Of a DNA stretch of 32,000 bases, positions 4,630 through 28,982 are shown in pieces; position 1 is the first letter of the stretch, and every line of letters starts with the position of its first letter. The stretch covers positions 1,710,001 through 1,742,000 of the forward strand of contig OZ245049.1 of NCBI GenBank assembly GCA_965224465.1, given 5' to 3'. The position numbers were made by a program, and so were the translations under genes. Below the pieces are notes generated by a model. The model was not told the origin of the DNA. It made no database searches and saw only the letters and a program-made list of their open reading frames with translations. The DNA comes from Flavobacteriaceae bacterium (GTDB taxonomy: Bacteria; Bacteroidota; Bacteroidia; Flavobacteriales; Flavobacteriaceae).

Positions 4630-5115
4630 ATGAAAAACAAACAGCAGATCCGTGTAAACAACCAGTTTAATTTTGTCCTGAGTCAAAACGACTTAGACGA
4701 TTTAGACATTCTAATCTTAAAAAAAGACAAGAAACATGTACTCTTAAAAAACGCTTCACATAGCATTGTTATTTCTAAAAGAGATTTTAAATTAAAAGCT
4801 TATGAGATTAACATAGATTCAGAAGTATACAACGTTGTTATAAAAAATGAATTGGACACACGTATTAAAAAAATGGGTTTTTCCATTGAAAAAACAGCTA
4901 TTTCTAAAAGCTTTAAAGCTCCTATGCCCGGATTTATTTTAGACATCCTTGTAAAAAAAGGTGCGCACGTTCAAAAAGGAAGTCCTATACTTATCCTAGA
5001 AGCGATGAAAATGGAGAATACGATAAATGCACCCATGGAGGGACGTATAAAATCCATTCATGTAACAAAAGGAGAGAATGTTGAGAAAGGAACACTTTTA
5101 ATAGAAATGGAATAA
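4630..5115 (+). CDS. biotin carboxyl carrier protein (biotinyl/lipoyl domain) of an acyl-CoA carboxylase
   Basis: Biotinylation motif EAMKMEN sits in a C-terminal ~70-aa lipoyl-like domain (APMPGFILDILVKKGAHVQKGSPILILEAMKMENTINAPMEGRIKSIHV). It is the first gene of a three-gene carboxylase cluster. Confidence 0.85.
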   Translation: MKNKQQIRVNNQFNFVLSQNDLDDLDILILKKDKKHVLLKNASHSIVISKRDFKLKAYEINIDSEVYNVVIKNELDTRIKKMGFSIEKTAISKSFKAPMPGFILDILVKKGAHVQKGSPILILEAMKMENTINAPMEGRIKSIHVTKGENVEKGTLLIEME

Positions 5116-5275
5116 TACCAATGACAATCCAAAATGACCGATATAAATAGTTTGTTTTACGTTCTAGCATTGTTAAAAAACAGAACGATAGCAAAGCTAT
5201 CCATCCATTTTTTACCAAGTTAAAACAAAAAATAATTCCATTCCTAAACCGTCACTTGGAAATGTATTTGGTATA
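5115..5275 (+). repeat. MITE-like dispersed repeat, copy A (~160 bp, terminal inverted repeats)
   Basis: Starts ATACCAATGACAATCCAAAATGACCGATATAAATAG and ends CCGTCACTTGGAAATGTATTTGGTATA. It is alignable over its full length to 6 other copies in the window. It fills the BCCP-accC intergenic gap and begins at the BCCP stop codon. Confidence 0.8.
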
Positions 5276-5298
5276 ACATTGATAACACAAAAACAAGC

Positions 5299-8444: not shown

Positions 8445-9259
8445 ATGTTGGATTTATCTAAAGTAAAAATGGTGGTTACCGATATGGACGGTACTTTACT
8501 AAATGATTGGGGAGAGGTAAGCCCTGAATTTTTTCGATTGTTTACGCTATTACAAAAACACAACATACATTTTGTTGTTGCAAGTGGTCGTCAATATTTT
8601 AGTATGTTAGAAAAACTATACAGCATAAAAGATGCTATTACTATTGTTGCAGAAAATGGAGGAATGACCAATTATAATGGTGAAGTAATCTCTACCAGTA
8701 CCATTTCTCAAAAACAAATTAACATTATTATAGACACCTTAAGAAAAACTTCGGGTGCCTATATTGTTTTATGTGGTAAAAAAAATGCCTATATCGAAAC
8801 ATCTGACAAAAAATTCATCGAAATATTCAAAGAATATTACACTAAATTTGAACATGTTAAGGATTTAAAAAGTGTTACTGAAGACAAAATATTTAAGATT
8901 GCCACGTATCATTTTAAAAATTCCACCGACTATATTTACCCCTTTGTAGAACATTTAGAAGATGAAAATTTAGTAAAAATATCAGGGAAAAACTGGTTAG
9001 ACATATCTTCTCCATCTACCAATAAAGGACAAGCTATTGAAAATTTACAACAACTATTAACATCACAAAAGAAGAAACAATGGTTTTTGGTGATTACAAT
9101 AACGATTTAGAAATGTTAGCACAAGCCCATTTTAGTTACGCCATGGAAAACGCTTGTGAAGATGTAAAAAAAGCAGCACGTTTTCACACAAAAAGTAACA
9201 ACAACAATGGGGTGGAATTTATATTAGATAAACTTATAAAATCCAAAGAGCTCAATTAA
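8445..9259 (+). pseudogene. Cof-type HAD-IIB hydrolase interrupted by a 1-nt frameshift near 9057-9062
   Basis: Frame 0 gives MVVTDMDGTLLN...ASGRQYFS...NKGQAIENLQQLL and stops at 9110. Frame 2 is open from 9041 and continues ITKEETMVFGDYNNDLEMLAQAHFSYAMENA...KSKELN* to 9259. Together they form a complete Cof-like protein if one base is restored around TTAACATC. Confidence 0.8.
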
Positions 9260-9412
9260 TTCAATTACAATCCATAATAACCTATATAAATAAGTTGTTT
9301 TACGCTCTAGTGTTGTTAAAAATCAGAACGATAGTTAAGGCTATCCATCCATTTTTTATCTAGCTAAAAAAAAATTATTTATAAACCGTCACTTGGAAAT
9401 ATATTTGGTTTA
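9259..9412 (+). repeat. MITE-like dispersed repeat, copy B
   Basis: Starts AATTCAATTACAATCCATAATAACCTATATAAATAAG and ends CCGTCACTTGGAAATATATTTGGTTTA. It begins at the HAD stop codon. Confidence 0.75.
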
Positions 9413-9436
9413 ATTTAATCACAGCATCTCAAACAA

Positions 9437-9471: not shown

Positions 9472-9484
9472 ATCTATTATTTAA

Positions 9485-10473
9485 TAGGGTTACCCTCTTA
9501 AGTCGCAATATATTTGATTGATTTATAGGTTATTGGTTTTTCTTTACACATTCTTTTTAGTAGGTTTTCTAAGATGTTTTCTCTAAAATTGAGTCGATTA
9601 AATCGATAGAAATACTCTTGAATGTATTGATTTATATACTCTTTCTCACAATACGAATGAACGCCTCTTAACCAATTTTTAAAGTTTCTTATCTGAAAAT
9701 GTAGCATCTTAAAATTCTCACCATTATTAGATAATATTTGTGTTAAATTTGGGAAGTTCTTTTTTAAAGGTTTATATCCTGACCAGCCATCTGTAACTAT
9801 ATTGGCATCAAACTTTATATGTTTCTCAAATATTGGTTTTAATGATTTGCAACTATAATCTTCTATCACCTTTGCGTATGCTCTGCCTGGTTTACCATTT
9901 CTATTTTCAATGGCAATTACAACTCTAATTTTAGTAGCTGATTTACTACGTCCTTGCTCTCCTTTTTTTGGTGTACCTATTTCAAACTCGTCTACATGAA
10001 CTTCTTTTTCTAAAGGATATTTCTCACTACTTTTCATTGCTTCTTGTACTTTTCTTCTAAACAACCAAGCTGTCATCTGTTTAACACCGTGCCTTTCTGC
10101 TAACCAAATACTATTCGCTCCTTTCTTACTGGTAACTATATCATAAGTCGTTTCAAAGGCTTCTACAATACCAAATTTAACTTTATGAAATAGAGTGTTC
10201 GCAGTTGGAGACTCATCATATCCGCATTTTGTACAACGTCTATTATACGCTCTTTTTCCTTTTAAAAACTTTGTGTTTTTACATTTAAAACAGGAAAAAC
10301 CTTCTTCCCATTTTACAGATGATAAAAAAGATAAACATAAACTCTCTTCTCCAAACTTAGTGTGAAATTCTTTACGAGATAATTCTTTTAATATTTTCAT
10401 AGCTTTCTTTTTCTAAAAGTAAAAAATCCTTTCAGAAAAACAAAATATTAGTGAGATTTAAATAGGTAACCCT
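9485..10473 (-). mobile_element. IS1595-family insertion sequence flanked by a 9-bp direct repeat
   Basis: Imperfect terminal inverted repeats (T)AGGGTTACC..TTAA..TC at 9485-9510 and 10448-10473. Direct repeat ATTATTTAA at 9476-9484 and 10474-10482. The element contains a single transposase ORF. Confidence 0.8.
9498..10400 (-). CDS. IS1595-family transposase (N-terminal zinc ribbon plus DDE domain)
   Basis: The N-terminus has CxxC...CxxC (CFKCKNTKF...RRCTKCGY) and SIWLAERHGVKQMTAWLFRRKV. The central/C-terminal part is ISXO2-like (VHVDEFEIG, IVTDGWSGY). These are typical of IS1595 transposases. Confidence 0.85.
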   Translation of the reverse strand: MKILKELSRKEFHTKFGEESLCLSFLSSVKWEEGFSCFKCKNTKFLKGKRAYNRRCTKCGYDESPTANTLFHKVKFGIVEAFETTYDIVTSKKGANSIWLAERHGVKQMTAWLFRRKVQEAMKSSEKYPLEKEVHVDEFEIGTPKKGEQGRSKSATKIRVVIAIENRNGKPGRAYAKVIEDYSCKSLKPIFEKHIKFDANIVTDGWSGYKPLKKNFPNLTQILSNNGENFKMLHFQIRNFKNWLRGVHSYCEKEYINQYIQEYFYRFNRLNFRENILENLLKRMCKEKPITYKSIKYIAT

Positions 10474-10492
10474 ATTATTTAAATCTAAACTC

Positions 10493-16433: not shown

Positions 16434-16600
16434 ACACCAACTAAAACCCAAAATAACCGATATAAATAATCTGTTTTACGTTCTAACGTTGTTAAAAAAT
16501 AGAACGATAGCTAACCAAGGCGCTACCCTTAGATTATTTGCCTAGCTAAAACAAAAAATAATTCCATTTCTAATCCATCACTTGGAAAATTACTTGGTAT
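16434..16600 (+). repeat. MITE-like dispersed repeat, copy C (variant internal loop)
   Basis: Starts ACACCAACTAAAACCCAAAATAACCGATATAAATAAT and ends CCATCACTTGGAAAATTACTTGGTAT. The TAGCTAA..GCCTAGCTA internal stem is kept, but the loop sequence differs from other copies. Confidence 0.75.
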
Positions 16601-16725: not shown

Positions 16726-19700
16726 ATGACTCAACAAACACCTTATACTCCAAGTAATAAAATACGAATTGTAACTGCTGCTTCACTTTTTGATGGCCAT
16801 GATGCCGCCATTAATGTAATGCGACGCATCATCCAATCTACAGGCGTGGAAGTTATACACCTAGGCCACGACAGAAGCGTAGAAGAAGTTGTAAATACAG
16901 CCATCCAAGAAGATGCAAATGCTATTGCCATTACCTCCTACCAAGGAGGACATAACGAATATTTTAAATACATGGTTGACCTACTTAAAGAAAAAGGGGC
17001 TTCAAATATTAAAATATTTGGCGGAGGTGGAGGTGTAATTTTACCATCAGAAATCGCCGATTTAATGGATTATGGAATTACAAAAATATACACTCCAGAT
17101 GACGGAAGAAAATTGGGACTCCAAGGGATGATAAACGATATGATTTCCCAATGTGATTACCCTACAGGAGAAAACATAACAACAACTATTGATGCGTTTC
17201 AGCTACAAAACATACAAACAATTGCCAATGCCATTTCTGCAGCAGAAAATTTCCCAGAAAAGCATGCCGACTTTATAAAAACCATACGCAAAAAGGCATC
17301 CAAATCCAACATCCCTGTATTGGGAATTACGGGAACTGGAGGAGCTGGAAAATCGAGTTTAGTAGATGAACTTGTACGTAGGTTTTTACAAGATTTCCCT
17401 AGTAAAAAACTAGCCATAGTATCGGTAGACCCTTCTAAACGCAAAACAGGAGGCGCATTACTCGGAGACAGAATCCGTATGAACGCCATCAAAACAGACC
17501 GTGTCTACATGCGTTCTTTAGCTACTAGACAATCTAACTTAGCCTTATCAAAACACGTGAGCGATGCCATTGACATCTTGAAAATCTCTGCTTTTGACTT
17601 GGTTATTCTAGAGACCTCCGGTATTGGTCAAAGTGACACTGAAATACTAGATCATTCGGATGTATCTTTATATGTTATGACGCCCGAGTACGGTGCAGCT
17701 ACCCAGTTGGAAAAAATTGACATGATTGACTTTGCGGATGTAATCGCCTTGAATAAATTTGACAAAAGAGGCGCTCTTGACGCACTTCGAGACGTTAGAA
17801 AACAATACCAACGCACTCATAATTTATGGAAAGAAGACATTGACAGCATGCCTGTCTACGGCACAATCGCATCACAGTTTAACGATCCTGGTGCAAACAA
17901 CCTATACCGTGTTTTGATTCAAAAACTAAACGAAAAAACCAATGTAAATTTCGAAAGCTCGTTTGAAATCACCAAATGCATGAGCGAGAAACAGTATATC
18001 ATCCCTCCAAATAGAACACGTTATCTATCAGAAATATCAGAAAACAATCGCACATACAATCAAGAAAGCACAACTCAAAAAGAAATTGCTCAAAAACTAT
18101 TCGGTATTTTTAAAACCATCTGCTCTGTTGCAAATATCAACAAAAATCCCCATCAATTTTTATCAAAAAACGGACTGAAAGAGACTGAGATAATTTCGGC
18201 ATTAGAAACCAAAGAAAACACCGAATTCTTAGGGCTTTTATTTAAAGAATTTGCACGTGTAAAAATGGATCTAAACCCACACAACTGGAACATAATTACC
18301 CAATGGGACACAAAAAAACAACGCTACAAAAACGATGTCTTTCTATTTAAGGTACGTGATAAAGAAATTAAAATAGCGACACATAGCGAATCACTTTCTC
18401 ATACAAAAATACCCAAAATTTGTCTGCCATCCTACGAAGCTTGGGGAGACATCCTATTCTGGTCATTACAAGAAAATGTTCCTGGAGAGTTCCCTTTTGC
18501 TGCTGGAATTTACCCATTCAAAAGAACGGGTGAAGACCCAACAAGAATGTTTGCAGGTGAAGGCGGCCCGGAACGCACCAATAGACGGTTTCATTATGTA
18601 AGTTTAGGCATGCCAGCAAAAAGGCTCTCTACCGCTTTTGACAGCGTAACTCTTTATGGAAACGACCCAAACAAAAGACCCGATGTTTACGGGAAAATAG
18701 GAAATGCAGGTGTATCCATCTGCTGCTTAGACGATGCTAAAAAACTATACGCTGGTTTTGATTTAACAGCCCCAATGACCTCTGTTTCCATGACTATTAA
18801 CGGCCCCGCCCCAATGATGCTAGGTTTTTTTATGAATGCAGCCATAGATCAAGAGTGTGAGAAATACATTAAAAAAAATCATTTAGAAAAAGAAATAAAC
18901 AAGAAGATAGATAAAATCTACTCTACTAAAAATACTGAACGGACTCAATACCAAGGAGAACTTCCAGAAGGAAATAACGGATTGGGATTGTTTTTATTAG
19001 GAGTTACAGGTGATGAGGTATTGCCTTTAGATATTTACACAAAAATCAAATACGAGACCATTTCCAAAGTAAGAGGAACCGTACAGGCGGACATATTAAA
19101 AGAAGACCAAGCACAAAACACCTGTATCTTTTCTACAGAGTTTGCTTTGAGACTTATGGGAGATGTTCAAGAATATTTTATCGATAATAATATCCGTAAT
19201 TTTTATTCTGTTTCTATTTCAGGATATCACATTGCCGAAGCAGGCGCCAATCCTATTACCCAATTAGCTTTTACTTTAGCTAACGGATTTACGTATGTGG
19301 AATACTACCTATCTCGTGGCATGGACATTAATAAGTTTGGACCAAATCTATCCTTTTTCTTCTCCAACGGAATCGATCCAGAATATGCAGTAATAGGACG
19401 TGTAGCTAGAAGAATTTGGTCAAAAGCAATGAAACAGAAATACGGCGCTAATTCTAGGGCTCAAATGATGAAATACCATATACAAACCTCTGGACGCTCT
19501 TTACACGCTCAAGAAATTGACTTTAACGACATCCGAACCTCTCTTCAAGCCTTGTATGCAATCTATGACAATTGCAATAGTTTACATACAAATGCCTACG
19601 ATGAGGCCATTACAACACCTACCGAAGAAAGTGTCCGAAGAGCCATGGCGATCCAACTAATTATAAATAAAGAATTAGGGCTCACCAAGAATGAGAATCC

Positions 19701-20172
19701 TATCCAAGGAGCATTTATTATTGAAGAATTGACCGATTTATTTGAAGAAGCTGTCTATACAGAATTTGACAGAATCACGGAAAGAGGAGGTGTTTTAGGA
19801 GCCATGGAAACCATGTATCAACGCAGCAAGATACAAGAAGAGAGTTTGTATTATGAAACTTTAAAACACACAGGTAAGTTTCCTGTTATTGGAGTAAACA
19901 CCTTCTTAAGTAAAGACGGATCTCCTACCGTCCTTCCAGAAGAAGTAATACGCGCAACAGAAGAAGAAAAAAAACAGCAAATTCTCACGGTCACAAACCT
20001 ACACCATAATACGGATAAAAAAACAGCAGAACAGCTAGAATTACTTCAAATAAAATCGATCAACAATGAAAATATTTTCGAACAATTAATGGAAGCGACT
20101 AAAATATGTTCCCTTGGTCAAATTACAGAAGCACTCTTTAAAGTAGGAGGACAATACAGAAGAAATATGTAG
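16726..20172 (+). CDS. icmF: fused B12-dependent acyl-CoA mutase (IcmF-type: B12-binding domain + MeaB-like G-protein + mutase barrel)
   Basis: The N-terminal B12 domain has the DxHxxG motif ([11 protein letters not shown]). The P-loop is [17 protein letters not shown], with a NKFD box. The large C-terminal part is a methylmalonyl/isobutyryl-CoA mutase substrate domain ([43 protein letters not shown]). Confidence 0.88.
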
Positions 20173-20180
20173 ATAGGTCT

Positions 20181-20226
20181 ATAAACCAATTACATTCCAA
20201 AACAACCGATATAAATAGTTGATTTC
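20181..20226 (+). repeat. MITE-like repeat, copy D, truncated after ~45 bp
   Basis: ATAAACCAATTACATTCCAAAACAACCGATATAAATAGTTGATTTCA matches the left end of copies E/F/H. It then switches abruptly to effector-gene sequence. Confidence 0.7.
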
Positions 20227-20385
20227 ATGAAGGATTCAAAAGGAGAAAATCACCCTGATTCAGGAGCAATAGATTTAATGAAATACTATAATAACGACCC
20301 AAAATATATTGATTATAAAAGGGCTAGTTCTTCGGAAAAAGACATTCCAGGTTTACTTTGGCTCACTAAATTAGAATTAAAATGA
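20227..20385 (+). pseudogene. orphan 3' fragment (last 52 codons) of an HExxH-effector paralogue
   Basis: MKDSKGENHPDSGAIDLMKYYNNDPKYIDYKRASSSEKDIPGLLWLTKLELK* aligns to the last ~55 aa of the 429-aa protein at 21929-23218. It lacks the HExxH region. Confidence 0.75.
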
Positions 20386-20755
20386 AGTATATTGTATTAT
20401 TAATTTTTATTTCTTTTTTTAGTTGTGAAAATAAAATAAAAACTAAAATAAAAGGCATTATCTATATCAATAAAGACCTTCCTGTTTTAAACATAGAAAT
20501 TGGCTCAAAAATTATATTTTCACCTATGCATTCTAAGTATGCTAAAAGGGTAGGTTTGGTTTTAAAAAAAACGGAGAATTTGAATTCGAAATAAAAAGAA
20601 CAGAGATGAAAGGAGACAATAATTTCGCTGTCATTTTTAGAAAAAAAGGATATAAAGATGAATACAGATTTGTAGACATTAGGAAGGGTGGAGAAATTAA
20701 TTTAGATACAATCTTTTTAAAACAAACCGACAGTATAACGTTGCCTAATAACTAA
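20382..20755 (+). pseudogene. small lipoprotein (putative immunity, family 1), frameshifted at an A8 tract
   Basis: Lipobox FFSC, with an ATGA overlap to the upstream fragment. Frame 0 stops at 20594. Frame 2 continues NGEFEFEIKRTEMKGDNNFAVIFRKKGYKDEYRFVDIRKGGEINLDTIFLKQTDSITLPNN* to 20755. The paralogue at 25704 has A9 at this position and stays in frame there. Confidence 0.7.
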
Positions 20756-20841
20756 GATTCGTGTGGTGCGTAGCGCTCAGAACGAACATAATGTTGACTA
20801 TACCGACTCAAAAGATAATACTATGGGGATTTCCCGAAGTT

Positions 20842-20997
20842 ATACCAAAATAAAATAACTGATACAAATAGTTTATTTCACGTTCTAGCGTTGTTAAAAA
20901 ACAGAACCATAGCTAAGGCTATCCATCCATTTTTCGCCTAGCTAAAACAAAAAATAACTCCATTTCTAAACCATCACTTGGAAATGTAGTTGGTATA
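20842..20997 (+). repeat. MITE-like dispersed repeat, copy E
   Basis: Starts ATACCAAAATAAAATAACTGATACAAATAG (left TIR partly deleted) and ends CCATCACTTGGAAATGTAGTTGGTATA. Confidence 0.75.
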
Positions 20998-21259
20998 ATT
21001 AAAAAATAGTTTCGTATGTAATAAATTTTTCTGCGAAAATTTCAGAGTTTTTTTGCCATAAAACTCATTCTAGGTAGCCCCTTAAGCACATCTATTAAGT
21101 ACTCATAACCGTTGTGTCATAAGCGCACTGTACCCATAGCAATTATTGTTTATTTTGTTATACTAATAAAGAAGCCATATTATAAGGCAGGAAAACAGGA
21201 ATCTCCCCTTTAAAACAAGCATGTAAACAAAATTAATCAGAATAAAAACACAATAACAC

Positions 21260-21289
21260 ATACGCGTATAACATTGTTTTATATATTTG
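21260..21289 (+). promoter_or_regulatory. candidate promoter/operator: 10-bp perfect palindrome ATACGCGTAT followed by a TAnnTTTG-type -7 box (TATATTTG)
   Basis: Palindrome at 21260-21269 and TATATTTG at 21282-21289, about 175 nt upstream of the Hcp-like ATG. The whole segment is duplicated at 25194-25223. No clear -33 TTTG element was seen. Confidence 0.35.
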
Positions 21290-21462
21290 ACCTACGCTTA
21301 AAAACAAACACGCCCTAACAACAAGCCTTCCCTACATTGTAAACTAAATGGATACACTATCAAGTTTAGAATTGTTATTGTGAGGATATGTGTATTACAA
21401 AGCATTGACACACTCCAAGAACTTAATACAACATATAACAACACAACATATAACAACACAAC

Positions 21463-21927
21463 ATGGTAAAAGCAATATTAATAATAGAAGGAAAAGAAGT
21501 AAACGTACGTTGGTTTACCATCAATTTTAATCAAGGAGCAAATCCTAACGGCAGACCCTCACAGAAACCCATATTTGTAGGTTTAAAACTAATTATAGAA
21601 ACTAGAAAAGACCTAAATCTTACTGACTGGGCCTTTTCCTCTAGACAAACAAAACAGATAGTATTACATCTTAATTCCGTTATTGTGGGAGGCAAAACAA
21701 GAAAAATATTTTTCTATGACTGTCATCTTGTAAACTGGAAAACAAATTTTTCTTCTACAGGATCAGATCCAATGACGGAAACTTTAGAAATCACCTGTGC
21801 TGGTGTTGAAGATTCTAACTCGTTTGGTGTGTATTCTGCCTCTTGGAGAGAAACATTTCCTAATCTAGAAGAAAATAAAAACAATAACCAAATAATTGAA
21901 CTAAAAGTAAAAACTAATATATCATAA
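21463..21927 (+). CDS. Hcp/TssD-like tube protein (Bacteroidetes T6SS-iii type)
   Basis: 154 aa. MVKAILIIEGKEVNVRWFTINFNQGANPNGRPSQKP..GLKLIIETRKD...IFFYDCHLVNWKTNFSSTGSDPMTETLEITCAG follows the pattern I recall for Bacteroidetes TssD: K-A-x-L-x-I-x-G, x-F-x-Q-x-x-D/N-x-x-G-R/K-P, and a late PM..L.I.A motif. Confidence 0.62.
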   Translation: MVKAILIIEGKEVNVRWFTINFNQGANPNGRPSQKPIFVGLKLIIETRKDLNLTDWAFSSRQTKQIVLHLNSVIVGGKTRKIFFYDCHLVNWKTNFSSTGSDPMTETLEITCAGVEDSNSFGVYSASWRETFPNLEENKNNNQIIELKVKTNIS

Positions 21928-21928
21928 A

Positions 21929-23218
21929 ATGCCATATTTTATCCCTTTAGGAGTACCTGACTTTAACGGAAAAAAAGAAAGAGACTTTTTCCAGTTTACA
22001 TACGAAATAGAAGATAATGACGCTCTAGAATTACTTATAGAAATACGTGACGGCAGCAATGTTATATATAAAGAAAAAATAACAGATTGCTCAAAATTAA
22101 TCCAAGGAGAACATATTTGGCAATGGGACGGTTTTGATAATCATGGAATTTTAGACACTGCAAAATTCACTAATGCAAAAAGTTTAAATTTTTACGTCAC
22201 AGGAAAAGATGATGCTGGAAACTACGACCGATCTAAAACTGATTTTAAAGCAGAATATGACCAAGTAGATTGGGTAGATGTTAAAATTGATAAAGTCTCT
22301 AAACGTATTGACGTAACATTACGTGTAAATTTAACTGATGGAGGTGAAAAAGGAACTGAAACCAATTATAAATTCGAGAAAATAAGCCCAGGTGATTATC
22401 ACAATCCAAAACTATCGGCACCGAAAAAAATATATCCTTGGAGTAAAATCCCTAACAAAGCATTAGAATACTACGGAGAAACTCCTATAAAAACAAGAAC
22501 TAAAAGTTTTGAAGAATTAAAAGAAATGGTTCTAGATGGTATAAATATTTACTGGAGTCGACATCAAGGTAATATTGGTAAAAATATACAGATCAATAAT
22601 AAAAAATACGAAATTTTCGTGAATGCTATTAATATAACGGATTCTAATAAAAGTTTGGATGACATTCCTCTTATTTACAACACAAATAGTCCTTGGTCTA
22701 GATCTGGAAACACTGGAGGTAGCTACAGTGACGGGAATTTTGATGACGAAATAATGGGAATACTTCCTAATGGTTTAGTTCAACGAATTTCTTTCAATTC
22801 AGGCTATATTTATCATGATAATTGGAAATCATGGTACAAAGGACACTACATACATAAAACAAAAGGTTGGTTATTTAATTCGGAGGTTAATGAAACTAAA
22901 GACTTTGAAGAAACATCTGCTCACGAAATTGGACATGAAATACTTCAAGCTTACGCAGGAACAGTCTATTCGTGGCAACATAAAGGTAGTTCTTATTATT
23001 TACCTCAAGATATTAAACCTGTAGGAGAAGAAACTTTTAAAGAGGAATATATAAACATTGATTATATGGAAAACTCAAAGGGTGAAAACGTACCTACCAG
23101 TGGAGAAATTGACTTAATGAAATACTATAACGATTATTCTGATTACAAAAATAGAATTATAGCTAACGAAAAAGACGTACTCAGTTTATTATGGTTAACT
23201 AAACTAAATCTAAAATGA
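21929..23218 (+). CDS. putative secreted effector with a C-terminal HExxH zincin-like domain
   Basis: 429 aa with no signal peptide, starting 1 nt after the Hcp-like stop. The N-terminal segment has an FlgD-Ig-like signature (LIEIRDGSNVIYKEKI...GEHIWQWDGFDNHG). The C-terminal part has TSAHEIGHEILQAYAGTVYSWQHKGSS. HExxH plus a conserved His 14 residues later is also kept in the paralogue fragments at 26905 and 27670. Confidence 0.6.
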   Translation: MPYFIPLGVPDFNGKKERDFFQFTYEIEDNDALELLIEIRDGSNVIYKEKITDCSKLIQGEHIWQWDGFDNHGILDTAKFTNAKSLNFYVTGKDDAGNYDRSKTDFKAEYDQVDWVDVKIDKVSKRIDVTLRVNLTDGGEKGTETNYKFEKISPGDYHNPKLSAPKKIYPWSKIPNKALEYYGETPIKTRTKSFEELKEMVLDGINIYWSRHQGNIGKNIQINNKKYEIFVNAINITDSNKSLDDIPLIYNTNSPWSRSGNTGGSYSDGNFDDEIMGILPNGLVQRISFNSGYIYHDNWKSWYKGHYIHKTKGWLFNSEVNETKDFEETSAHEIGHEILQAYAGTVYSWQHKGSSYYLPQDIKPVGEETFKEEYINIDYMENSKGENVPTSGEIDLMKYYNDYSDYKNRIIANEKDVLSLLWLTKLNLK

Positions 23219-23670
23219 TATATATACTAATATTCACTTTTATCTTTTTTTCTATTTTACTAATAACTAACCCTTTGTTTAGAAAAAAAAGAATAATTTC
23301 AAAAATAATTATTTATATCATTTTCACTCTAGTAATCTTCTTAATTACCGTTTTATTTATAATGTATTTATGGAACACAAATATTGATTATCGCGAACAA
23401 AAGAAAATGATGAATTCTCATAATATTTATATTTTAAACACCCTAAATAACCCAATAAAAAACACAATAACAATACTTGAAAACAAAAACAACAAAGATA
23501 CAATTATATCAAATACTAATGGTTTTGTAAACTACAACAAAGTAAAAAACAAGACAATTATAATCCAAGCTAAAGGACATTTAACAAAGACAATAGCTGT
23601 CAATAAAATTAATAATGACACAATACGTCTAAAACAAATACAGACAAATAACCACCTACACAATAAGTAG
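23215..23670 (+). CDS. small two-TM membrane protein, putative cognate immunity protein
   Basis: ATGA overlap with the effector stop. Two hydrophobic helices (IYILIFTFIFFSILLITNPLF; IIIYIIFTLVIFLITVLFIMYLW) are followed by a ~90-aa beta-rich domain (NPIKNTITILENKNNKDTIISNTNGFVNYNKV...IIIQAKGHLTKTIAV). That domain resembles the CarboxypepD_reg-like pattern of the downstream lipoproteins. Confidence 0.5.
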   Translation: MIYILIFTFIFFSILLITNPLFRKKRIISKIIIYIIFTLVIFLITVLFIMYLWNTNIDYREQKKMMNSHNIYILNTLNNPIKNTITILENKNNKDTIISNTNGFVNYNKVKNKTIIIQAKGHLTKTIAVNKINNDTIRLKQIQTNNHLHNK

Positions 23671-23882
23671 GTAAAATACTGATATCCATCCATTTGATTC
23701 CGACTCAAAAGATGCTATCATCAGCATAATATAAATAACTGGGCTAATGTCTACTGGTCATAATAAATGTAGGCTATTTTTAGAGCTGAACTTAATTATT
23801 TTTTATACTACAAGGAACTCCTTTTAGGATTGTTTAAATGTAACAGCAGGGCAGAATAAACCTTTTATGAGGATTAAATAAA

Positions 23883-25008
23883 GCTTAAATTCAACTAATA
23901 AACGCAACTTTTCGATTTGATTCTATGATGGTTATATTTTCAAAACAGAAAAGTAGGAAAACCTACCTTTCTTGTCTTGATGGATATGTATCTTACGGTC
24001 TCAAATCTCGAAAAAAGAAGTTGTATGAAACACATCACCCAAGCGCAAAGATACACAATTTGTTGCATGTTAAAACAAGGTTATAAACAGGTTGAGATAG
24101 CAGCTGCTATAGGAAAAGACAAGTCTGTTATTAGCAAAGAGATTAAGCGTAATTCAGACAAAAGAAATGGAGTTTACAAGCATGAATTAGCCCAAAAAAA
24201 GTATGCTAAACGTCATAAAGAAAAGCCTAAAAGAAAACGCTTTACAGAAGATATTCAACAAGCAATAGAGTTGTTATTGCGAGACGATTATAGTCCTGAG
24301 CAAGTAGTTGGTGTCCTAAAAAAACAAGGTAAAGAAACGGTGTCTATTGAGCGTATATATCAGCATATTAGGGAAGACAAGAGGAATGATGGTGATTTAC
24401 ATACACACCTTCGCAGACAGGGAAGGAGATATAGAAAACGTGGCTCATCAAAGGATTCTAGAGGGGTTATAAAGAATCGTATTAGTATAGAACAACGCCC
24501 TGAAGTTGTTGAACAAAGAAATCGATTTGGAGATTTAGAGGTCGATTTAATCATAGGTAAAAACCATAATCAAGCCATACTTACCGTAAATGATAGAGCT
24601 TCTGGAATGCTTAAAATGAAAAAAGTAAGCTCTAAAGAAGCAGTTGTTGTCACTAAAGCTATCAATGAAATATTAGAAGACTGGAAGCCTTATCTACATA
24701 CTATAACAGCTGATAATGGAAAAGAATTTGCAGGCCATGAGCAGGTTGCAGAAAATTTATGTATTGATTACTTTTTTGCGCATCCATATCACTCTTGGGA
24801 AAGAGGATCTAACGAAAATTTAAATGGTTTGATTAGACAATATTTTGCCAAAGGAAGTGACTTTACAAACCTAACAGATCAAAGAATCAAAGAGGTAGAA
24901 ACAAAATTAAATAACAGACCTAGGAAGAGACATAAATATCAAAACCCTATATTTGTAATGGAACAATTATTATTTAACTAAAAGTTGCGTTTGTGACTTG
25001 AATTCAGC
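23883..25008 (+). mobile_element. IS30-family insertion sequence
   Basis: Imperfect ~29-bp terminal inverted repeats: GCTTAAATTCAACTAATAAACGCAACTTT (23883-23911) and the reverse complement of AAAGTTGCGTTTGTGACTTGAATTCAGC (24981-25008). A single transposase ORF lies inside. Confidence 0.8.
24025..24981 (+). CDS. IS30-family transposase
   Basis: N-terminal HTH (MKHITQAQRYTICCMLKQGYKQVEIAAAIGKDKSVISKEIKRN). DDE region (GDLEVDLIIG, ITADNGKEF, HSWERGSNENLNGLIRQY). The start is taken at the ATG at 24025 rather than the TTG at 23977. Confidence 0.88.
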   Translation: MKHITQAQRYTICCMLKQGYKQVEIAAAIGKDKSVISKEIKRNSDKRNGVYKHELAQKKYAKRHKEKPKRKRFTEDIQQAIELLLRDDYSPEQVVGVLKKQGKETVSIERIYQHIREDKRNDGDLHTHLRRQGRRYRKRGSSKDSRGVIKNRISIEQRPEVVEQRNRFGDLEVDLIIGKNHNQAILTVNDRASGMLKMKKVSSKEAVVVTKAINEILEDWKPYLHTITADNGKEFAGHEQVAENLCIDYFFAHPYHSWERGSNENLNGLIRQYFAKGSDFTNLTDQRIKEVETKLNNRPRKRHKYQNPIFVMEQLLFN

Positions 25009-25193
25009 AAGTGTTTAATTCTGCATTTTATTTTTAAAAAGCACTCCAAGTATTAAGTTCTCTGTTTTTATTAGTAGAAACCACAAACCCACGTTTACCA
25101 ATTAATATCATGTTTTAAAAACAGTACGATGAAGTTCAAAACTTTACAATAACTTAAAGAACAAAACTACATCGAAATTAAAACACAGAAACA

Positions 25194-25223
25194 CATACGC
25201 GTATAACATTTTTTCATATATTT
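25194..25223 (+). promoter_or_regulatory. second copy of the palindrome plus -7-box leader, now without a downstream Hcp gene
   Basis: ATACGCGTAT at 25194-25203 and TATATTTG at 25216-25223. About 140 bp (25185-25332) aligns with 21250-21395 upstream of the Hcp-like gene, then runs straight into repeat copy F. Confidence 0.3.
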
Positions 25224-25332
25224 GAACTGCATTTTAAAAAATAAACACGCCCTAATCATAAGCTAAACCAACTGTGAACTAAATAAATATGCTATCAAGT
25301 TTAGAATTGCTATTGTGAGAACATTGGGCATT

Positions 25333-25497
25333 ACACCAATTACAATCCAAAATAACCTATATAAATAGTTTATTTCACGTTATAGCATTGTTAAAAAAAA
25401 ATAAAATGACAGCTAAGGCTATCTATCCATTTTTCGCCTAGCTAAAACAACAAACAACTCCATTTCTAAACCGTTACTTGGAAATGTAGTTGGTATT
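25333..25497 (+). repeat. MITE-like dispersed repeat, copy F
   Basis: Starts ACACCAATTACAATCCAAAATAACCTATATAAATAG and ends CCGTTACTTGGAAATGTAGTTGGTAT. The left flank is the Hcp leader copy. The right flank is effector codons equivalent to ~aa 352 of the intact gene. Confidence 0.8.
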
Positions 25498-25707
25498 AAA
25501 CCTGAGAGGAAAGAATCATTTAAAGAAGAATATATTAATAGAGATTTTATGAAAGATACCTCAGGTGAGAACTCCCCTGATTCAGGAGCAATAGATTTAA
25601 TGAAATACTATAATAACGACCCAAAATATATTGATTATAAAAGGGCTAGTTCTTCGGAAAAAGACATTCTAGGTTTACTTTGGCTCACTAAATTAGATTT
25701 AAAATGA
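25497..25707 (+). pseudogene. orphan 3' fragment (~69 codons) of an HExxH-effector paralogue
   Basis: (I)KPERKESFKEEYINRDFMKDTSGENSPDSGAIDLMKYYNNDPKYIDYKRASSSEKDILGLLWLTKLDLK* aligns with DIKPVGEETFKEEYINIDYMENSKGENVPTSGEIDLMKYY...LLWLTKLNLK of the intact gene. There is no HExxH and no credible start codon. Confidence 0.75.
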
Positions 25708-26079
25708 AGTATATTGTATTATTAATTTTTATTTCTTTTTTTAGTTGTGAAAATAAAACAGAAACTAAAATAAAAGGCATTATCTATATCAATAAAGACC
25801 TTCCTGTTTTAAACATAGAAATTGGTTCAAAAATTATATTTTCACCTATGCATTCTAAGTATGCTAAAAGGGTAGATTTAGTTTTAAAAAAAAACGGAGA
25901 ATTTGAATTCGAAATAAAAAGAACAGAGATGAAAGGAGATAATAATTTTGCTGTCATTTTTAGAAAAAAAAGGATATAAAGATGAATACAGATTTATAGA
26001 CATTAGGAAGGGTGGAGAAATTAATTTAGATACAATCTTTTTAAAACAAACCGACAGTATAACGTTGCCTAATAACTAA
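25704..26079 (+). pseudogene. small lipoprotein (putative immunity, family 1), frameshifted at an A8 tract
   Basis: Near-identical to 20382-20755. It is in frame through the first A-tract (A9) but has A8 where the other copy has A7 (25964-25971). This gives a stop at 25979, and the remainder (KGYKDEYRFIDIRKGGEINLDTIFLKQTDSITLPNN*) reads in frame 1 to 26079. Confidence 0.7.
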
Positions 26080-26165
26080 GATTCGTGCGGTGCGTAGCGC
26101 TCAGAACGAACATAATGTTGACTATACCGACTCAAAAGATAATACTATGGGGATTTCCCGAAGTT

Positions 26166-26328
26166 ATACCAAAAAAAAAAACCGAAATAACTGATATAAA
26201 TAGTTTGTTTTAGGTTCTAGCGTAGTTGTAAAAAACAGAACAATAGCTAGGCTATCCATCCATTTTCCGCCTAGCTAAAACAAAAAATAATTTCATTTCT
26301 AAACCTTCACTTGGAAATGTAGTTGTAT
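26166..26328 (+). repeat. MITE-like dispersed repeat, copy G
   Basis: Starts ATACCAAAAAAAAAAACCGAAATAACTGATATAAATAG and ends CCTTCACTTGGAAATGTAGTTGTAT. It has a perfect internal stem TAGCTAGGC...GCCTAGCTA. Confidence 0.75.
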
Positions 26329-26372
26329 TACTTCAATTTATAAAGCATTACATATCTAAATAACACATCGTT

Positions 26373-26834
26373 ATGAAATACATATTAATCTTAATTATAC
26401 CATTCTTATTATTAGCATCTTGCGCTCACAACATTCCTATAGCAAATTTAAAATTTAATGAGATTAAAAAAAACAATGAAATCAACAATTATTATTCCTT
26501 AAACTTTTCATCAGATATAGAGCTTATTCATAATTTATCAGAAAAGCATACAATGGCAAGGTTTGATTGTTTTTTTAAAAACGGGAATATTGAACAAAAG
26601 GATTTCACAAACTATAACGGTTATGTATTAGTATCCGTTGGAGAATTAAAAAAAGCTTCAAATATTTCTTCAGCACAACTTTATAATTACACGGTGAATG
26701 TTACCTTTGATAAAAATAAAGGTGAATTTTTAGACGAGAAGGATATTCCTGAAATTATTAAATTACTCAATAAAAAACCAAAATATTTAAACTGTGCAAT
26801 CACAGCAGTAACATATTTACAAACTACAAAATGA
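26373..26834 (+). CDS. hypothetical lipoprotein (possible orphan immunity protein of a different family)
   Basis: Signal peptide and lipobox MKYILILIIPFLLLASC. I recognise no motif. It is embedded among the effector/immunity cassettes. Confidence 0.5.
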   Translation: MKYILILIIPFLLLASCAHNIPIANLKFNEIKKNNEINNYYSLNFSSDIELIHNLSEKHTMARFDCFFKNGNIEQKDFTNYNGYVLVSVGELKKASNISSAQLYNYTVNVTFDKNKGEFLDEKDIPEIIKLLNKKPKYLNCAITAVTYLQTTK

Positions 26835-26904
26835 TATATATCAAACACTATGTGCTTACCAAAAAAGGAATTGAAAAACCTGATAAAATAACGCTTTTAA
26901 ATAA

Positions 26905-27297
26905 CTAATTATTAGCGAAACACATAGCATCAAGCCTACACACCCTATTTCCGATGCCAACTCAAAAGAAGCTGATTTTGCAATTATGTACAGAACAAAA
27001 ATCATATATAACACCAATTACAATCCAAATCCTGAGGATAAAGAACTTAAATACACATCAGCTCACGAAATAGAGCATACAATATTAAAAGCTTACGGGG
27101 GAACATTTTATAGTTATGGACATAAAGGAAGTGTAAACACTTTTACCCAGACTGAAAGCTCAGACGCAGAAGAATACTCTAAAAAGGGAGAAATAGATAG
27201 TATGCCATATTACACAAATGTTGTTCCTTTAAGTCAGTACGAAAGGCTCTGTTCTGCGGAAAAAGATGCTATAAGTTTAATCTGGTTAACTAAATGA
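26905..27297 (+). pseudogene. orphan 5'-truncated HExxH-effector paralogue (divergent variant)
   Basis: The frame is open from 26905: ...ISDANSKEADFAIMYRTKIIYNTNYNPNPEDKELKYTSAHEIEHTILKAYGGTFYSYGHKGS...GEIDSMPYY...EKDAISLIWLTK*. It aligns with mid-region INITDSNKSLDDIPLIYNTN and the HExxH region of the intact gene. About 75 residues between these two regions are missing. Confidence 0.65.
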
Positions 27298-27665
27298 GAA
27301 TTAAAATGAGAAAATTCCTGTTTTTTATAGCTGTAGTTTATCTGATTCAGTGTAAATCAAATATAAATTACTACCAAGGCTTTATTTATGATATGAATAA
27401 TAATCCCGTAATAAATTTAAAAGTTTACGAAAAACACAATAAAGAAAATTATTCATTGACAAATAAAAAAGGATATTTTAAAATATATACAAAAAGGAAT
27501 AACATTAAACGATTTCTTTATGTTAAACTAAATGAGTCAAGAATTATTGATTCTATACAAATTACTGGAATTCAAGGAGGAGAACGAATTAAATATAGTT
27601 TTATCGAAGGAAGAAAAGATACATTATTTATAACATTGCCTAAACAACTAAATATTGCGCGCTAG
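27294..27665 (+). CDS. small lipoprotein, putative immunity protein (CarboxypepD_reg-like pattern)
   Basis: ATGA overlap with the upstream fragment. Lipobox LIQC (the start may be the second ATG at 27306). YQGFIYDMNNNPVINLKVYEK...TNKKGYFKIY resembles carboxypeptidase-regulatory-like beta-sandwich domains. Confidence 0.55.
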   Translation: MRIKMRKFLFFIAVVYLIQCKSNINYYQGFIYDMNNNPVINLKVYEKHNKENYSLTNKKGYFKIYTKRNNIKRFLYVKLNESRIIDSIQITGIQGGERIKYSFIEGRKDTLFITLPKQLNIAR

Positions 27666-27669
27666 GTAG

Positions 27670-28053
27670 TACTCAAGCCCCCTTGGAGATGGTAATGAAT
27701 GGTTCTATGATAAAATAGTTGATGCAAATGAAGAATATAAAGAAACCTCAGCTCATGAGATAGGTCATGAAATACTGCAAGCTTATGCGGGTAATGTGTT
27801 TTCTTGGCAACATAAAGGCAGCTCTTATTATATGCCTCAAGATAAAAAGCCAATAGGCAAAGAATCATTTAAAGAAGAATCTATTAATAGAGATTATATG
27901 GAAGAAACTAAAGGGGGAAATTACCCTCATAGTGGTGAAGAAATAGATTTAATGAAATACTTTCCCGAAACAAAACCCAATAATTTTTATGATAAACGTG
28001 TTGCAAATAAAAAAGATGTACTTGGGTTATTATGGCTTACAAAATTAAAATGA
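27670..28053 (+). pseudogene. orphan 5'-truncated HExxH-effector paralogue (close to the intact copy)
   Basis: The frame is open from 27670, directly after the preceding stop: GDGNEWFYDKIVDANEEYKETSAHEIGHEILQAYAGNVFSWQHKGSSYYMPQDKKPIGKESFKEESINRDYMEE...IDLMKYF...KKDVLGLLWLTKLK*. There is no ATG upstream of the HExxH. Confidence 0.7.
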
Positions 28054-28393
28054 AACTTATAATAATTTTTGCAGTATCATTTCTTACTTCATGTGTTGAA
28101 GACACCTTAAGAGATGAAGTAAAGGCTTGTGTTTACTATAAAAACGTCCCCGTTAAAGATGCTATAATATTAACATGGCAAGGCTATGAAAAAGGTTTTA
28201 CCAAGGAAACCTCTACAGACTCCTTAGGTTATTTTTATTTAAAAAAATCAGTAGATACAATTTAGGGTCAGAATCACGTACTATTTCTCAGAAATTTTTA
28301 ATTAAAAAAGAAGATTTAATATCCGATACTTTGTCAACACTTGATTATAGATGTATCGATAAAAAAAATGACACAATATATTTAAGAAAATAA
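28050..28393 (+). pseudogene. small lipoprotein (putative immunity), frameshifted at an A7 tract
   Basis: ATGA overlap; MKLIIIFAVSFLTSC lipobox. Frame 0 stops at 28265. With one extra A at 28241-28247 it would read GYFYLKKISRYNLGSESRTISQKFLIKKEDLISDTLSTLDYRCIDKKNDTIYLRK* to 28393, which parallels the C-terminal halves of the 27294 and 28457 proteins. Confidence 0.6.
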
Positions 28394-28456
28394 CGTCCCT
28401 AGCAATTGTAACCATTGCACAAAAGAATAAATTTGCCACACAAAATTAGAATTAAA

Positions 28457-28807
28457 ATGAAACACATAGCATCTATTTACTTACTCATTTGTTTTTTCTC
28501 TTGTAAAGAAAAAGAGCTTAATTATTATCATGGAGTTATTGTTGACAAAAATTTAATTCCTATTTTAGGTGTTACTGTTAAAACAGATTATGCTGATTCT
28601 GTATATACAAAAACAACAAAAAACGGTTATTTCAAATTACCAAGAAAAGCCAATAGATATGGAAGTTTAGTTTTAAAAAAAAAAGGATATAAAACGGATA
28701 CCGTAAGGACTATATGGACTCAAAGCGGTGAATTTATAGACTATAGTTTTATTAATAATAAAATAGACACCGTATTATTAATAAAAACAACGGCATACAA
28801 TAACTAA
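28457..28807 (+). CDS. small lipoprotein, putative orphan immunity protein (CarboxypepD_reg-like pattern)
   Basis: MKHIASIYLLICFFSC lipobox. YHGVIVDKNLIPILGVTVKTDYADSVYTKTTKNGYFKLPRKANRYGSLVLKKKGYKTDTV is a classic CarboxypepD_reg-like signature. It is preceded by a ~25-bp degenerate remnant of the effector 3' end (TTGCCACACAAAATTAGAATTAAAATGA vs TGGCTCACTAAATTAGAATTAAAATGA). Confidence 0.6.
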   Translation: MKHIASIYLLICFFSCKEKELNYYHGVIVDKNLIPILGVTVKTDYADSVYTKTTKNGYFKLPRKANRYGSLVLKKKGYKTDTVRTIWTQSGEFIDYSFINNKIDTVLLIKTTAYNN

Positions 28808-28826
28808 CAGCAACATACATAATACA

Positions 28827-28982
28827 ATACCAATACTAAACAACCGATATAAATAGTTGATTTCACGTTATAGCGTTGTTAAAAAACAGAACCATAGCTA
28901 AGGCTATCCATCCATTTTTCACCTAGCTAAAACAACAAACAACTCCATTTCTAAACCGTTACTTGGAAATGCAGTTGGTATA
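28827..28982 (+). repeat. MITE-like dispersed repeat, copy H
   Basis: Starts ATACCAATACTAAACAACCGATATAAATAG and ends CCGTTACTTGGAAATGCAGTTGGTATA. It marks the right edge of the island. Confidence 0.75.

Follow-up and report, generated by a model that had tools for sequence, protein, structure and literature searches.

The stretch analysed here, 32,000 nucleotides (nt) of a Flavobacteriaceae bacterium genome (assembly GCA_965224465.1, contig OZ245049.1, positions 1,710,001 to 1,742,000; 'the window'), contains a type VI secretion system (T6SS) operon for a TssD/Hcp tube protein, an effector and an immunity protein. Downstream of it a second copy of the Hcp-operon leader is joined, through one complete copy of a short dispersed repeat (copy F), directly to the last part of a second effector gene. 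The repeat has the character of a MITE (miniature inverted-repeat transposable element), and we propose, tentatively, that copy F stands where a second operon with Hcp, effector and immunity genes was wrecked by an in situ deletion, through recombination between two MITE copies. We infer the former existence of this operon, as well as the order and mechanism of the events, from the present arrangement, and we put the probability of this history at about 0.45. The junction and the intact operon with which it is compared consist of the following features:

21226-21462, + strand: intact leader; its TTA at 21395-21397, ~66 nt before the Hcp ATG, aligns to the left junction of copy F
21463-21927, + strand: TssD/Hcp gene, Bacteroidota-type T6SS tube protein (Pfam PF17642 TssD, E 7e-25, 87.8 bits against a cut-off of 25.8)
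21929-23218, + strand: intact effector gene, 429 aa, with HEIGHE at residue 332; its TTA at 23013-23015 (codon 362) corresponds to the right junction of copy F
23215-23670, + strand: gene in the immunity position of the intact operon, encoding a membrane protein; it overlaps the effector stop, and its position is conserved in homologous loci
25160-25333, + strand: leader', the second copy of the Hcp-operon leader, ending at the TTA (25331-25333) that abuts copy F
25334-25495, + strand: full-length MITE copy F, complete at either end (CACCAATTACAATCC...GTAGTTGGTA); nhmmer E 1.7e-46, hairpin z = -3.9
25496-25707, + strand: effector C-terminal remnant, TTA (25496-25498), then codons 362-429 of a paralogue of the intact effector (the last 68 codons)
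25704-26079, + strand: cognate immunity-type gene, encoding a lipoprotein with CarboxypepD_reg-like relatives, frameshifted at an A-run; tblastn match to the product of 28415-28807 at E 1.7e-7
26114-26166, + strand: rem, a remnant of the effector mid-region (~residues 233-249, NVDYTDSKDNTMGISRS), ending in a TTA that abuts MITE copy G

The two leaders resemble each other, as the first-pass annotation of this DNA had maintained, and do so far beyond chance: 25160-25335 aligns with 21226-21399, upstream of TssD/Hcp, at 79% identity over 178 nt (BLASTN E 1.5e-35), and both leaders carry the ACATACGCGTAT palindrome (at 21258 and 25193) and a TAnnTTTG box, TATATTTG (at 21282 and 25217). The homology of leader' ends where copy F starts, and the junction reads ...GGGCA TTA / CACCAATTAC...GTAGTTGGTA / TTA AACCTGAG..., with both ends of the element complete. 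Past F the effector frame continues as IKPERKESFKEEYINRDF...LWLTKLDLK up to the stop codon, matching the intact effector at 69.6% of nucleotides over 260 nt (E 4.6e-23) and, at the protein level, its residues 362-429 with 63% identity over 71 aa (tblastn E 4e-20). The proposed leader-F-effector join is thus borne out by homology on both sides of the element, but its position, given earlier as effector codon ~352, has to be corrected: DIKPVG starts at effector residue 361 and the junction is codon 362. The tail past F has no in-frame start before 25549, and the immunity-type gene overlaps its stop codon, as in the intact operon. With its promoter-like motifs preserved, leader' appears to be directed across F towards the effector tail and the immunity gene. 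Neither a second Hcp nor any other N-terminal remnant of the effector is found in the window (tblastn), which agrees with the suggested loss of an Hcp gene together with part of an effector, except that the missing stretch corresponds to ~361 effector codons, not ~350, in addition to Hcp. Since the termini are complete and TTA is native at the aligned spots in both the intact leader and the intact effector, the ends of F are best read as transposition-type junctions at preferred targets and not as arbitrary breakpoints. For the same reason, both presumed target sites being natively TTA, no hybrid duplication is visible at F. Metagenome contigs contain no match to the 20-nt core of the leader palindrome or to the right-junction pattern of F.

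Judged by gene content and order, the intact operon appears to be a Hcp-effector-immunity module of the Bacteroidota T6SS (T6SS-iii). The effector has 579 homologues, some of them fused to TssD (P0021, P0033, P0094, P0097) or to the PAAR-like DUF4280 (P0050-P0052 and others); the closest is 67-68% identical and the best named relatives are Tenacibaculum proteins (65-67%). The first ~250 residues of the family are conserved (through ...DDIPLIYNTN), while the C-terminal HExxH domains are variable and fall into several subtypes. In all five distinct homologous loci that were read, from six locus records, a TssD gene lies immediately upstream of the effector homologue, and these loci are compact TssD-effector-immunity triads behind one upstream region. 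Because this organisation is invariable in the homologous loci, a second copy of the leader implies a lost triad. The leader itself shows no similarity to sequences upstream of TssD in Tenacibaculum or the other homologous loci. The end of the intact leader (21430-21462) is a tandem duplication (ACAACATATAACAACAC twice) directly 5' of the Hcp start codon, and leader' ends before that point.

What is the repeat then? Its core motif is matched seven times in the window against none expected in shuffles, and copy D is a truncated eighth copy outside this count. All eight copies are on the + strand and co-directional with the neighbouring genes. Besides copy F they, and one further trace, are:

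5116-5273, + strand: MITE copy A, TAA/TAA flanks, inside the TAA stop codon of an accB-like gene (with flanks 5113-5276)
9260-9410, + strand: MITE copy B, TAA/TAA flanks, exactly on the TAA stop codon of a HAD hydrolase gene (with flanks 9257-9413)
16435-16599, + strand: MITE copy C, upstream of the mutase gene; the flanking triplets differ by one base
20185-20227, + strand: MITE copy D, left 43 nt only, joined to the effector tail at ~codon 378; nhmmer E 2e-6
20843-20995, + strand: MITE copy E, mismatched flanks (TTA left, TAA right); nhmmer E 3e-45
26167-26327, + strand: MITE copy G, degenerate poly-A left end, TTA/TTA flanks; nhmmer E 6.6e-39
28828-28980, + strand: MITE copy H, which closes the island described below on the right, followed by TAA and a recQ-proximal terminator; nhmmer E 5.9e-48
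27009-27030, + strand: MITE left-end trace, TAA plus the first 19 nt (27012-27030), a 21/22-nt match to the left end of F (E 4e-4)

The repeat is ~160 nt long (151-165 nt), contains no open reading frame (ORF) of note and matches its own reverse complement across the whole length (nhmmer E 1e-8 to 1e-6). Its imperfect terminal inverted repeats of ~37 nt, (T/C)ACCAATTACAATCCAAAATRACCGATATAAATAG ... CCATTTCTAAACCGTCACTTGGAAATGTAnTTGGTA, are predicted to pair into a long stem at the termini (fold z-scores -4.3 and -3.9). Several other Flavobacteriaceae metagenome-assembled genomes carry this element, its ends unchanged, at no fewer than 9 loci in a contig search, in unrelated contexts. Flanking trinucleotides match as TAA/TAA at copies A and B and at loci L001, L004 and L008, and as TTA/TTA at L003 and L009; matching at 6-7 of 7 with two alternative triplets has a chance probability of ~0.03, and C, H and L006 are off by one base. 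Size variants exist elsewhere: L007 and L009 have ~75-nt 'mini' copies that consist of the two inverted ends only, and in L002, L003 and L006 the copies are lengthened by an additional segment inside. Syntenic contigs of relatives provide empty sites: at the position of copy B, L012, L014 and L016 have the stop codon, ~30 nt and the same terminator, with no MITE, and L012 and L016 lack, at the orthologous position, a MITE copy that L014 carries with an exact right junction. The syntenic relatives have none of the copies B, C, D, E and H; their contigs do not cover copy A, and their intergenic region corresponding to copy C is too diverged to align. The stop codons at copies A and B are regenerated owing to the TAA target duplication. 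Copy A sits inside an apparent operon, with a biotin-carrier gene on one side and a biotin-carboxylase gene on the other.

On the strength of the inverted termini with their hairpin, the TWA target duplications, the filled and empty sites and the dispersed copies, we identify the repeat as a MITE, that is, a non-autonomous transposable element which, as read from its flanks, inserts at TWA with a 3-bp target duplication. Duplication of TWA is typical of IS5/Harbinger-type transposases. The window contains no partner transposase with matching ends, and the inverted repeats of its two insertion sequences (IS), of the IS30 and IS1595 families, are unrelated to those of the MITE. We found no description of this MITE family in the literature and take it to be previously undescribed. 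A structured RNA was considered for the repeat and rejected: there is no Rfam family at gathering or E-value threshold, the tRNA scan is negative and RNAalifold gives a single compensatory pair. The uniform orientation was likewise dropped as a sign of RNA function, as recombination connects five of the window copies and the copy in L014 is antisense, with a minus-strand gene on either side.

MITE copies also bound a duplication. Segment 20209-20992 equals 25532-26325 at 93.8% identity over 796 nt, MITE included (BLASTN), and its first copy contains:

20228-20842, + strand: block 1, effector tail, immunity pseudogene and rem, 96.4% (596/618) identical to 25550-26166

The first-pass annotation had read copies E and G as truncations of effector remnants at '..SYTK' codons. 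They belong instead to one event in one duplicated block, and SYTK is partly MITE: the remnant ends in ...ISRS plus TTA, and TACCAAA is already the left end of the element. The assignment of rem comes from its translation compared with the family (...TDSxxSLDDIPLIYNTN), which is weak alone; rem (..TDSKD..) recurs after four immunity genes, and such pieces read as the start of the next orphan module. MITE E is 86% identical to G and 91% to H, as against 96.4% for the block interior, and has TTA/TAA flanks, so that the block was probably copied by exchange within MITE copies; differences in E and G are patchy, with no clean crossover breakpoint inside either. The 43 nt of D match F at 39 positions (91%), again below the 96.4% of the interior, and in our alignment three of the differences from F are common to H. 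D is an F-type MITE/effector-tail junction minus 172 nt, the deletion spanning a stretch in which the MITE (GATATAAATAGTTGATTTCA) and the tail of the effector (TATATTAATAG-AGATTTTA) are by chance alike at 17/21 nt. The MITE/codon-362 junction is therefore older than the block duplication. Each block copy of the immunity gene is broken by one one-base length change, in different A-runs (20564-20571 / 25887-25895 and 20643-20649 / 25967-25974); an intact ~125-aa gene would need nine A at the first run and seven at the second. These copies may be either decaying pseudogenes or products of homopolymer sequencing errors.

Further orphan modules follow copy G:

26373-28807, + strand: orphan module array with ORF153, two effector fragments and two immunity genes (tblastn)
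26986-27297, + strand: orphan effector fragment from ~residue 308, followed by an immunity gene at 27294-27665
27700-28053, + strand: orphan effector fragment from ~residue 314, followed by an immunity gene at 28415-28807

Effector fragments thus start at residues 308, 314, 362 and 377, with a small lipoprotein gene after each (tblastn). In the first orphan ORF (26986-27297) the MITE left end at 27009-27030 is fused in frame and read as ..NTNYNPN.., which mimics the conserved IYNTN motif; the remainder of the MITE and ~55 effector codons are gone at this place.

The history that we favour would run as follows. One MITE would have inserted at the TTA in the leader of the second operon, ~66 nt upstream of its Hcp start, and another at the TTA of effector codon 362 in the same operon. 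These copies, having the same orientation, would then have undergone homologous recombination that removed the remainder of the leader, the Hcp gene and ~361 effector codons and left leader'-TTA-MITE-TTA-effector tail-immunity gene. Later the MITE-bounded block of effector tail, immunity gene and remnant could have been copied by MITE-to-MITE recombination into a MITE beside the mutase gene, giving the arrangement from D to E, and a 172-nt deletion across the short similarity would finally have trimmed D. Several observations weigh against this history. A precursor, either two complete operons, which the first-pass annotation had suggested looking for in related strains, or a MITE at either TTA, was found neither in relatives nor in metagenomes, and the closest syntenic relatives are without the whole island. 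The flanks of F are TTA/TTA, and the hybrid-duplication signature expected in about two thirds of two-copy recombinants is absent. The four TTA flanks of F and G are ~3 times likelier as two pairs (F-left with G-right, F-right with G-left) than as three independent sites. A weak hint is that the sequence right of G starts with TTAC and holds AAAGCATT-ACA, like the leader continuation TTACAAAGCATTGACA (p ~0.05-0.08). Lastly, the effector tail could be just one more orphan module, similar to the two downstream ones, which have no leader.

These pairings of flanks are what one would expect if a MITE-bounded orphan block had entered a MITE resident at the TTA of leader', and likewise the MITE beside the mutase gene, so that the right junction of F was never part of the operon that owned leader'. 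The source would have been an orphan rem-TTA-MITE-TTA-effector tail-immunity module in which a MITE replaced residues ~250-361 and which left its place either by looping out, through recombination between rem repeats, or as a MITE-bounded composite. Such MITE-bounded composites (integron mobilization units, IMU), which move with target duplication, are documented (PMC3184786). The block is indeed present twice, bounded by MITE copies each time; its outer flanks pair (TTA at F-left and G-right; TAA at D-left and at E-right/H-right), as do the inner ones (TTA at F-right and G-left); the F to G block is a circular permutation of rem-MITE-tail-immunity; the MITE left-end trace at 27009-27030 lies at the 5' edge of another orphan; and the right flank of G, where leader' would be expected to continue on this reading, weakly resembles the 3' continuation of the leader. 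That resemblance, however, is far below the 79% of the 5' part of the leader, needs a 10-nt insertion and aligns poorly over the rest; its local p is 0.08 and its global shuffle p 0.05, and one of 23 real upstream regions scores equally. Insertion of a block would also leave the absence of Hcp and effector after leader' to a separate explanation, since ORF153 follows there, and it requires a source locus outside the window, while the 86% identity of the bounding MITEs, compared with 96.4% for the block, argues against recent composite transposition of the whole unit. On balance we consider this course of events somewhat unlikely, if still a serious competitor.

The deletion in the second operon may also have happened with no homologous recombination at all. 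A single MITE in leader' (or in codon 362) and a transposase-made adjacent deletion into a nearby TTA would have removed the same genes; one insertion suffices, both junctions are exact element ends beside the preferred TWA target, and IS-mediated adjacent deletions are well established. The first-pass annotation attributed the loss to repeat-mediated deletion, and the mobile nature of the element and its complete, TTA-flanked ends at a non-contiguous join do fit that view, but an adjacent deletion would leave the same ends, and the sequence cannot separate it from two-copy recombination. Taking into account that no transposase gene with matching ends is present in the window, we regard an adjacent deletion as improbable. 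A different kind of explanation would make the repeat the recombination site of a dedicated effector/immunity cassette system, integron-like or resembling recombinase-associated immunity arrays. Five same-orientation copies do lie at module boundaries within 8.8 kb, and Bacteroidales are known to have arrays of orphan immunity genes in which the intergenic repeats are conserved. Copies are found, however, also at housekeeping sites (after the accB-like gene, after the HAD hydrolase gene and upstream of the mutase gene) and, in other genomes, in unrelated surroundings, their ends are inverted in the manner of transposons and target duplications flank them, and no tyrosine or serine recombinase is encoded among the 35 ORFs of at least 85 aa in the window, where Pfam and NCBIfam profiles detect only the IS30 and IS1595 transposases; a cassette system is therefore very hard to credit. 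We find it equally hard to believe that the repeats and the 0.8-kb duplication misled the assembly into a false join at F. Homopolymer frameshifts in both immunity copies and in the HAD gene do hint at error-prone reads, but the blocks differ by 3.6% and their MITEs by 14% and hence are not collapsed copies, the junctions fall at exact element ends and the source contig is 5.24 Mb long.

The two-copy deletion that we favour would have taken place within an island which, by comparison with relatives, is lineage-specific and inserted between the gene for the mutase and recQ. The DNA of the window, from a Flavobacteriaceae bacterium, is low in GC. The fused isobutyryl/methylmalonyl-CoA mutase gene (icmF-type, 16726-20172) has orthologues of 88-92% identity in marine and subseafloor metagenome contigs and of ~80% in Lutibacter. 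Five syntenic contigs (L012-L016) share the gene order DUF4136 gene, mutase gene, small AHSA1-family gene, recQ and asparagine synthase gene. Everything between the mutase stop codon and the recQ-proximal terminator in the window (20185-28980, 8.8 kb) is absent from all five, where the small AHSA1-family gene occupies the mutase-recQ interval. The island is edged by copy D on the left (12 nt past the mutase stop, with TAA before D) and by copy H on the right (with TAA after H), and within it a single TssD(Hcp)-effector-immunity operon is intact; besides this operon there are decayed orphan effector-tail/immunity modules, an IS30 element and five MITE copies that all point the same way. On the + strand its left part runs D / effector tail-immunity-rem / E / spacer-leader-TssD-effector-immunity-rem3 / IS30, and its right part leader' / F / effector tail-immunity-rem / G / ORF153-rem4-orphan fragment-immunity-orphan fragment-immunity / H. 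Between the AHSA1-family gene and recQ, L012 (13940-14390) and L013 (13940-14090) have a different short repeat, tandem or dispersed (GGTCCTGACTCCAGTATCAATAACCGCCATGAGTGGCTCTCAATACTAATATC...), and assembly gaps; as relatives carry another repeat and gaps there, this spot is probably unstable across the clade. The insertion sequence that separates the intact operon from leader' is:

23870-25022, + strand: IS30-family element (NCBIfam transpos_IS30, E 1.2e-86) with 43-nt imperfect inverted repeats

No obvious matching target duplication is seen at its ends, and the IS30 element may itself sit at a rearrangement junction, from rem3 to leader'. The other insertion sequence, at 9477-10482, belongs to the IS1595 family and has a 300-aa transposase and inverted repeats of 34 nt; it separates the HAD gene from clpS, and the syntenic relatives lack it. 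Compared with orthologues of 271 aa, the HAD-hydrolase gene (8445-9259) is split.

How does this arrangement compare with known systems? Bacterial MITEs such as Correia/CREE of Neisseria, ERIC, RUP and the IMU share with the present family the length of ~160 nt with no ORF, long imperfect inverted ends forming a hairpin, a short target duplication and numerous scattered copies, frequently just past stop codons or within operons. They are also similar in serving as portable homology for deletions and duplications, and two copies can bracket and move a segment (PMC3184786). The repeat described here differs in being unrelated to any Rfam family and in its 3-bp TWA target duplication in place of TA. 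The auxiliary T6SS clusters of Vibrio cholerae, where arrays of orphan effector tails and immunity genes arise by successive displacement (PMC5361080), offer another parallel, together with the orphan modules of Rhs and contact-dependent inhibition (CDI) loci. Common to all is a full effector-immunity pair with 3' effector fragments behind it, every fragment having an immunity gene to itself, a conserved 5' and a variable 3' toxin part, and short conserved-region pieces, here rem, that precede the orphans. In contrast to those arrays, the triad here is of the Bacteroidota TssD-effector-immunity type, a second promoter/leader copy survives, and several module boundaries are MITE ends and not plain homology-facilitated illegitimate joins. 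With IS- or repeat-mediated deletions between direct repeats the F junction shares a single copy, exact at its ends, left between formerly distant sequences, while unequal target duplications, usual in such deletions, are seen at E (TTA/TAA) but not at F, where both sites are TTA. Recombinase-associated immunity arrays and integrons likewise have immunity genes separated by a recurring same-orientation sequence, but here no recombinase is present in the window and the repeats are transposon-like and occur at housekeeping sites as well.

A more far-reaching idea sees in the MITE family a portable recombination module for packaging effector-tail/immunity cassettes of the T6SS, where a cassette between two copies would loop out and re-enter at any other copy, or would transpose as a composite. 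If true, MITEs would have built the whole 8.8-kb Hcp-effector island and would keep reshuffling it, a transposon-derived, recombinase-free analogue of the integron for interbacterial weapons; we think this rather unlikely. The F junction itself is ordinary repeat-driven gene loss and shuffling, which adds a new family and a tidy example and no new mechanism or principle; what is less common is the presence of MITE ends at several module boundaries and an island bracketed by MITEs. The definition of the family, with its ends, TWA target and empty sites, should be useful for annotating such genomes. For the biology of marine Flavobacteriaceae, the locus is a clean case of a small non-coding transposon reshaping a T6SS effector/immunity island, with the effects of the MITE visible in lost genes and in an orphan immunity cassette that was duplicated and came to lie behind a surviving promoter.

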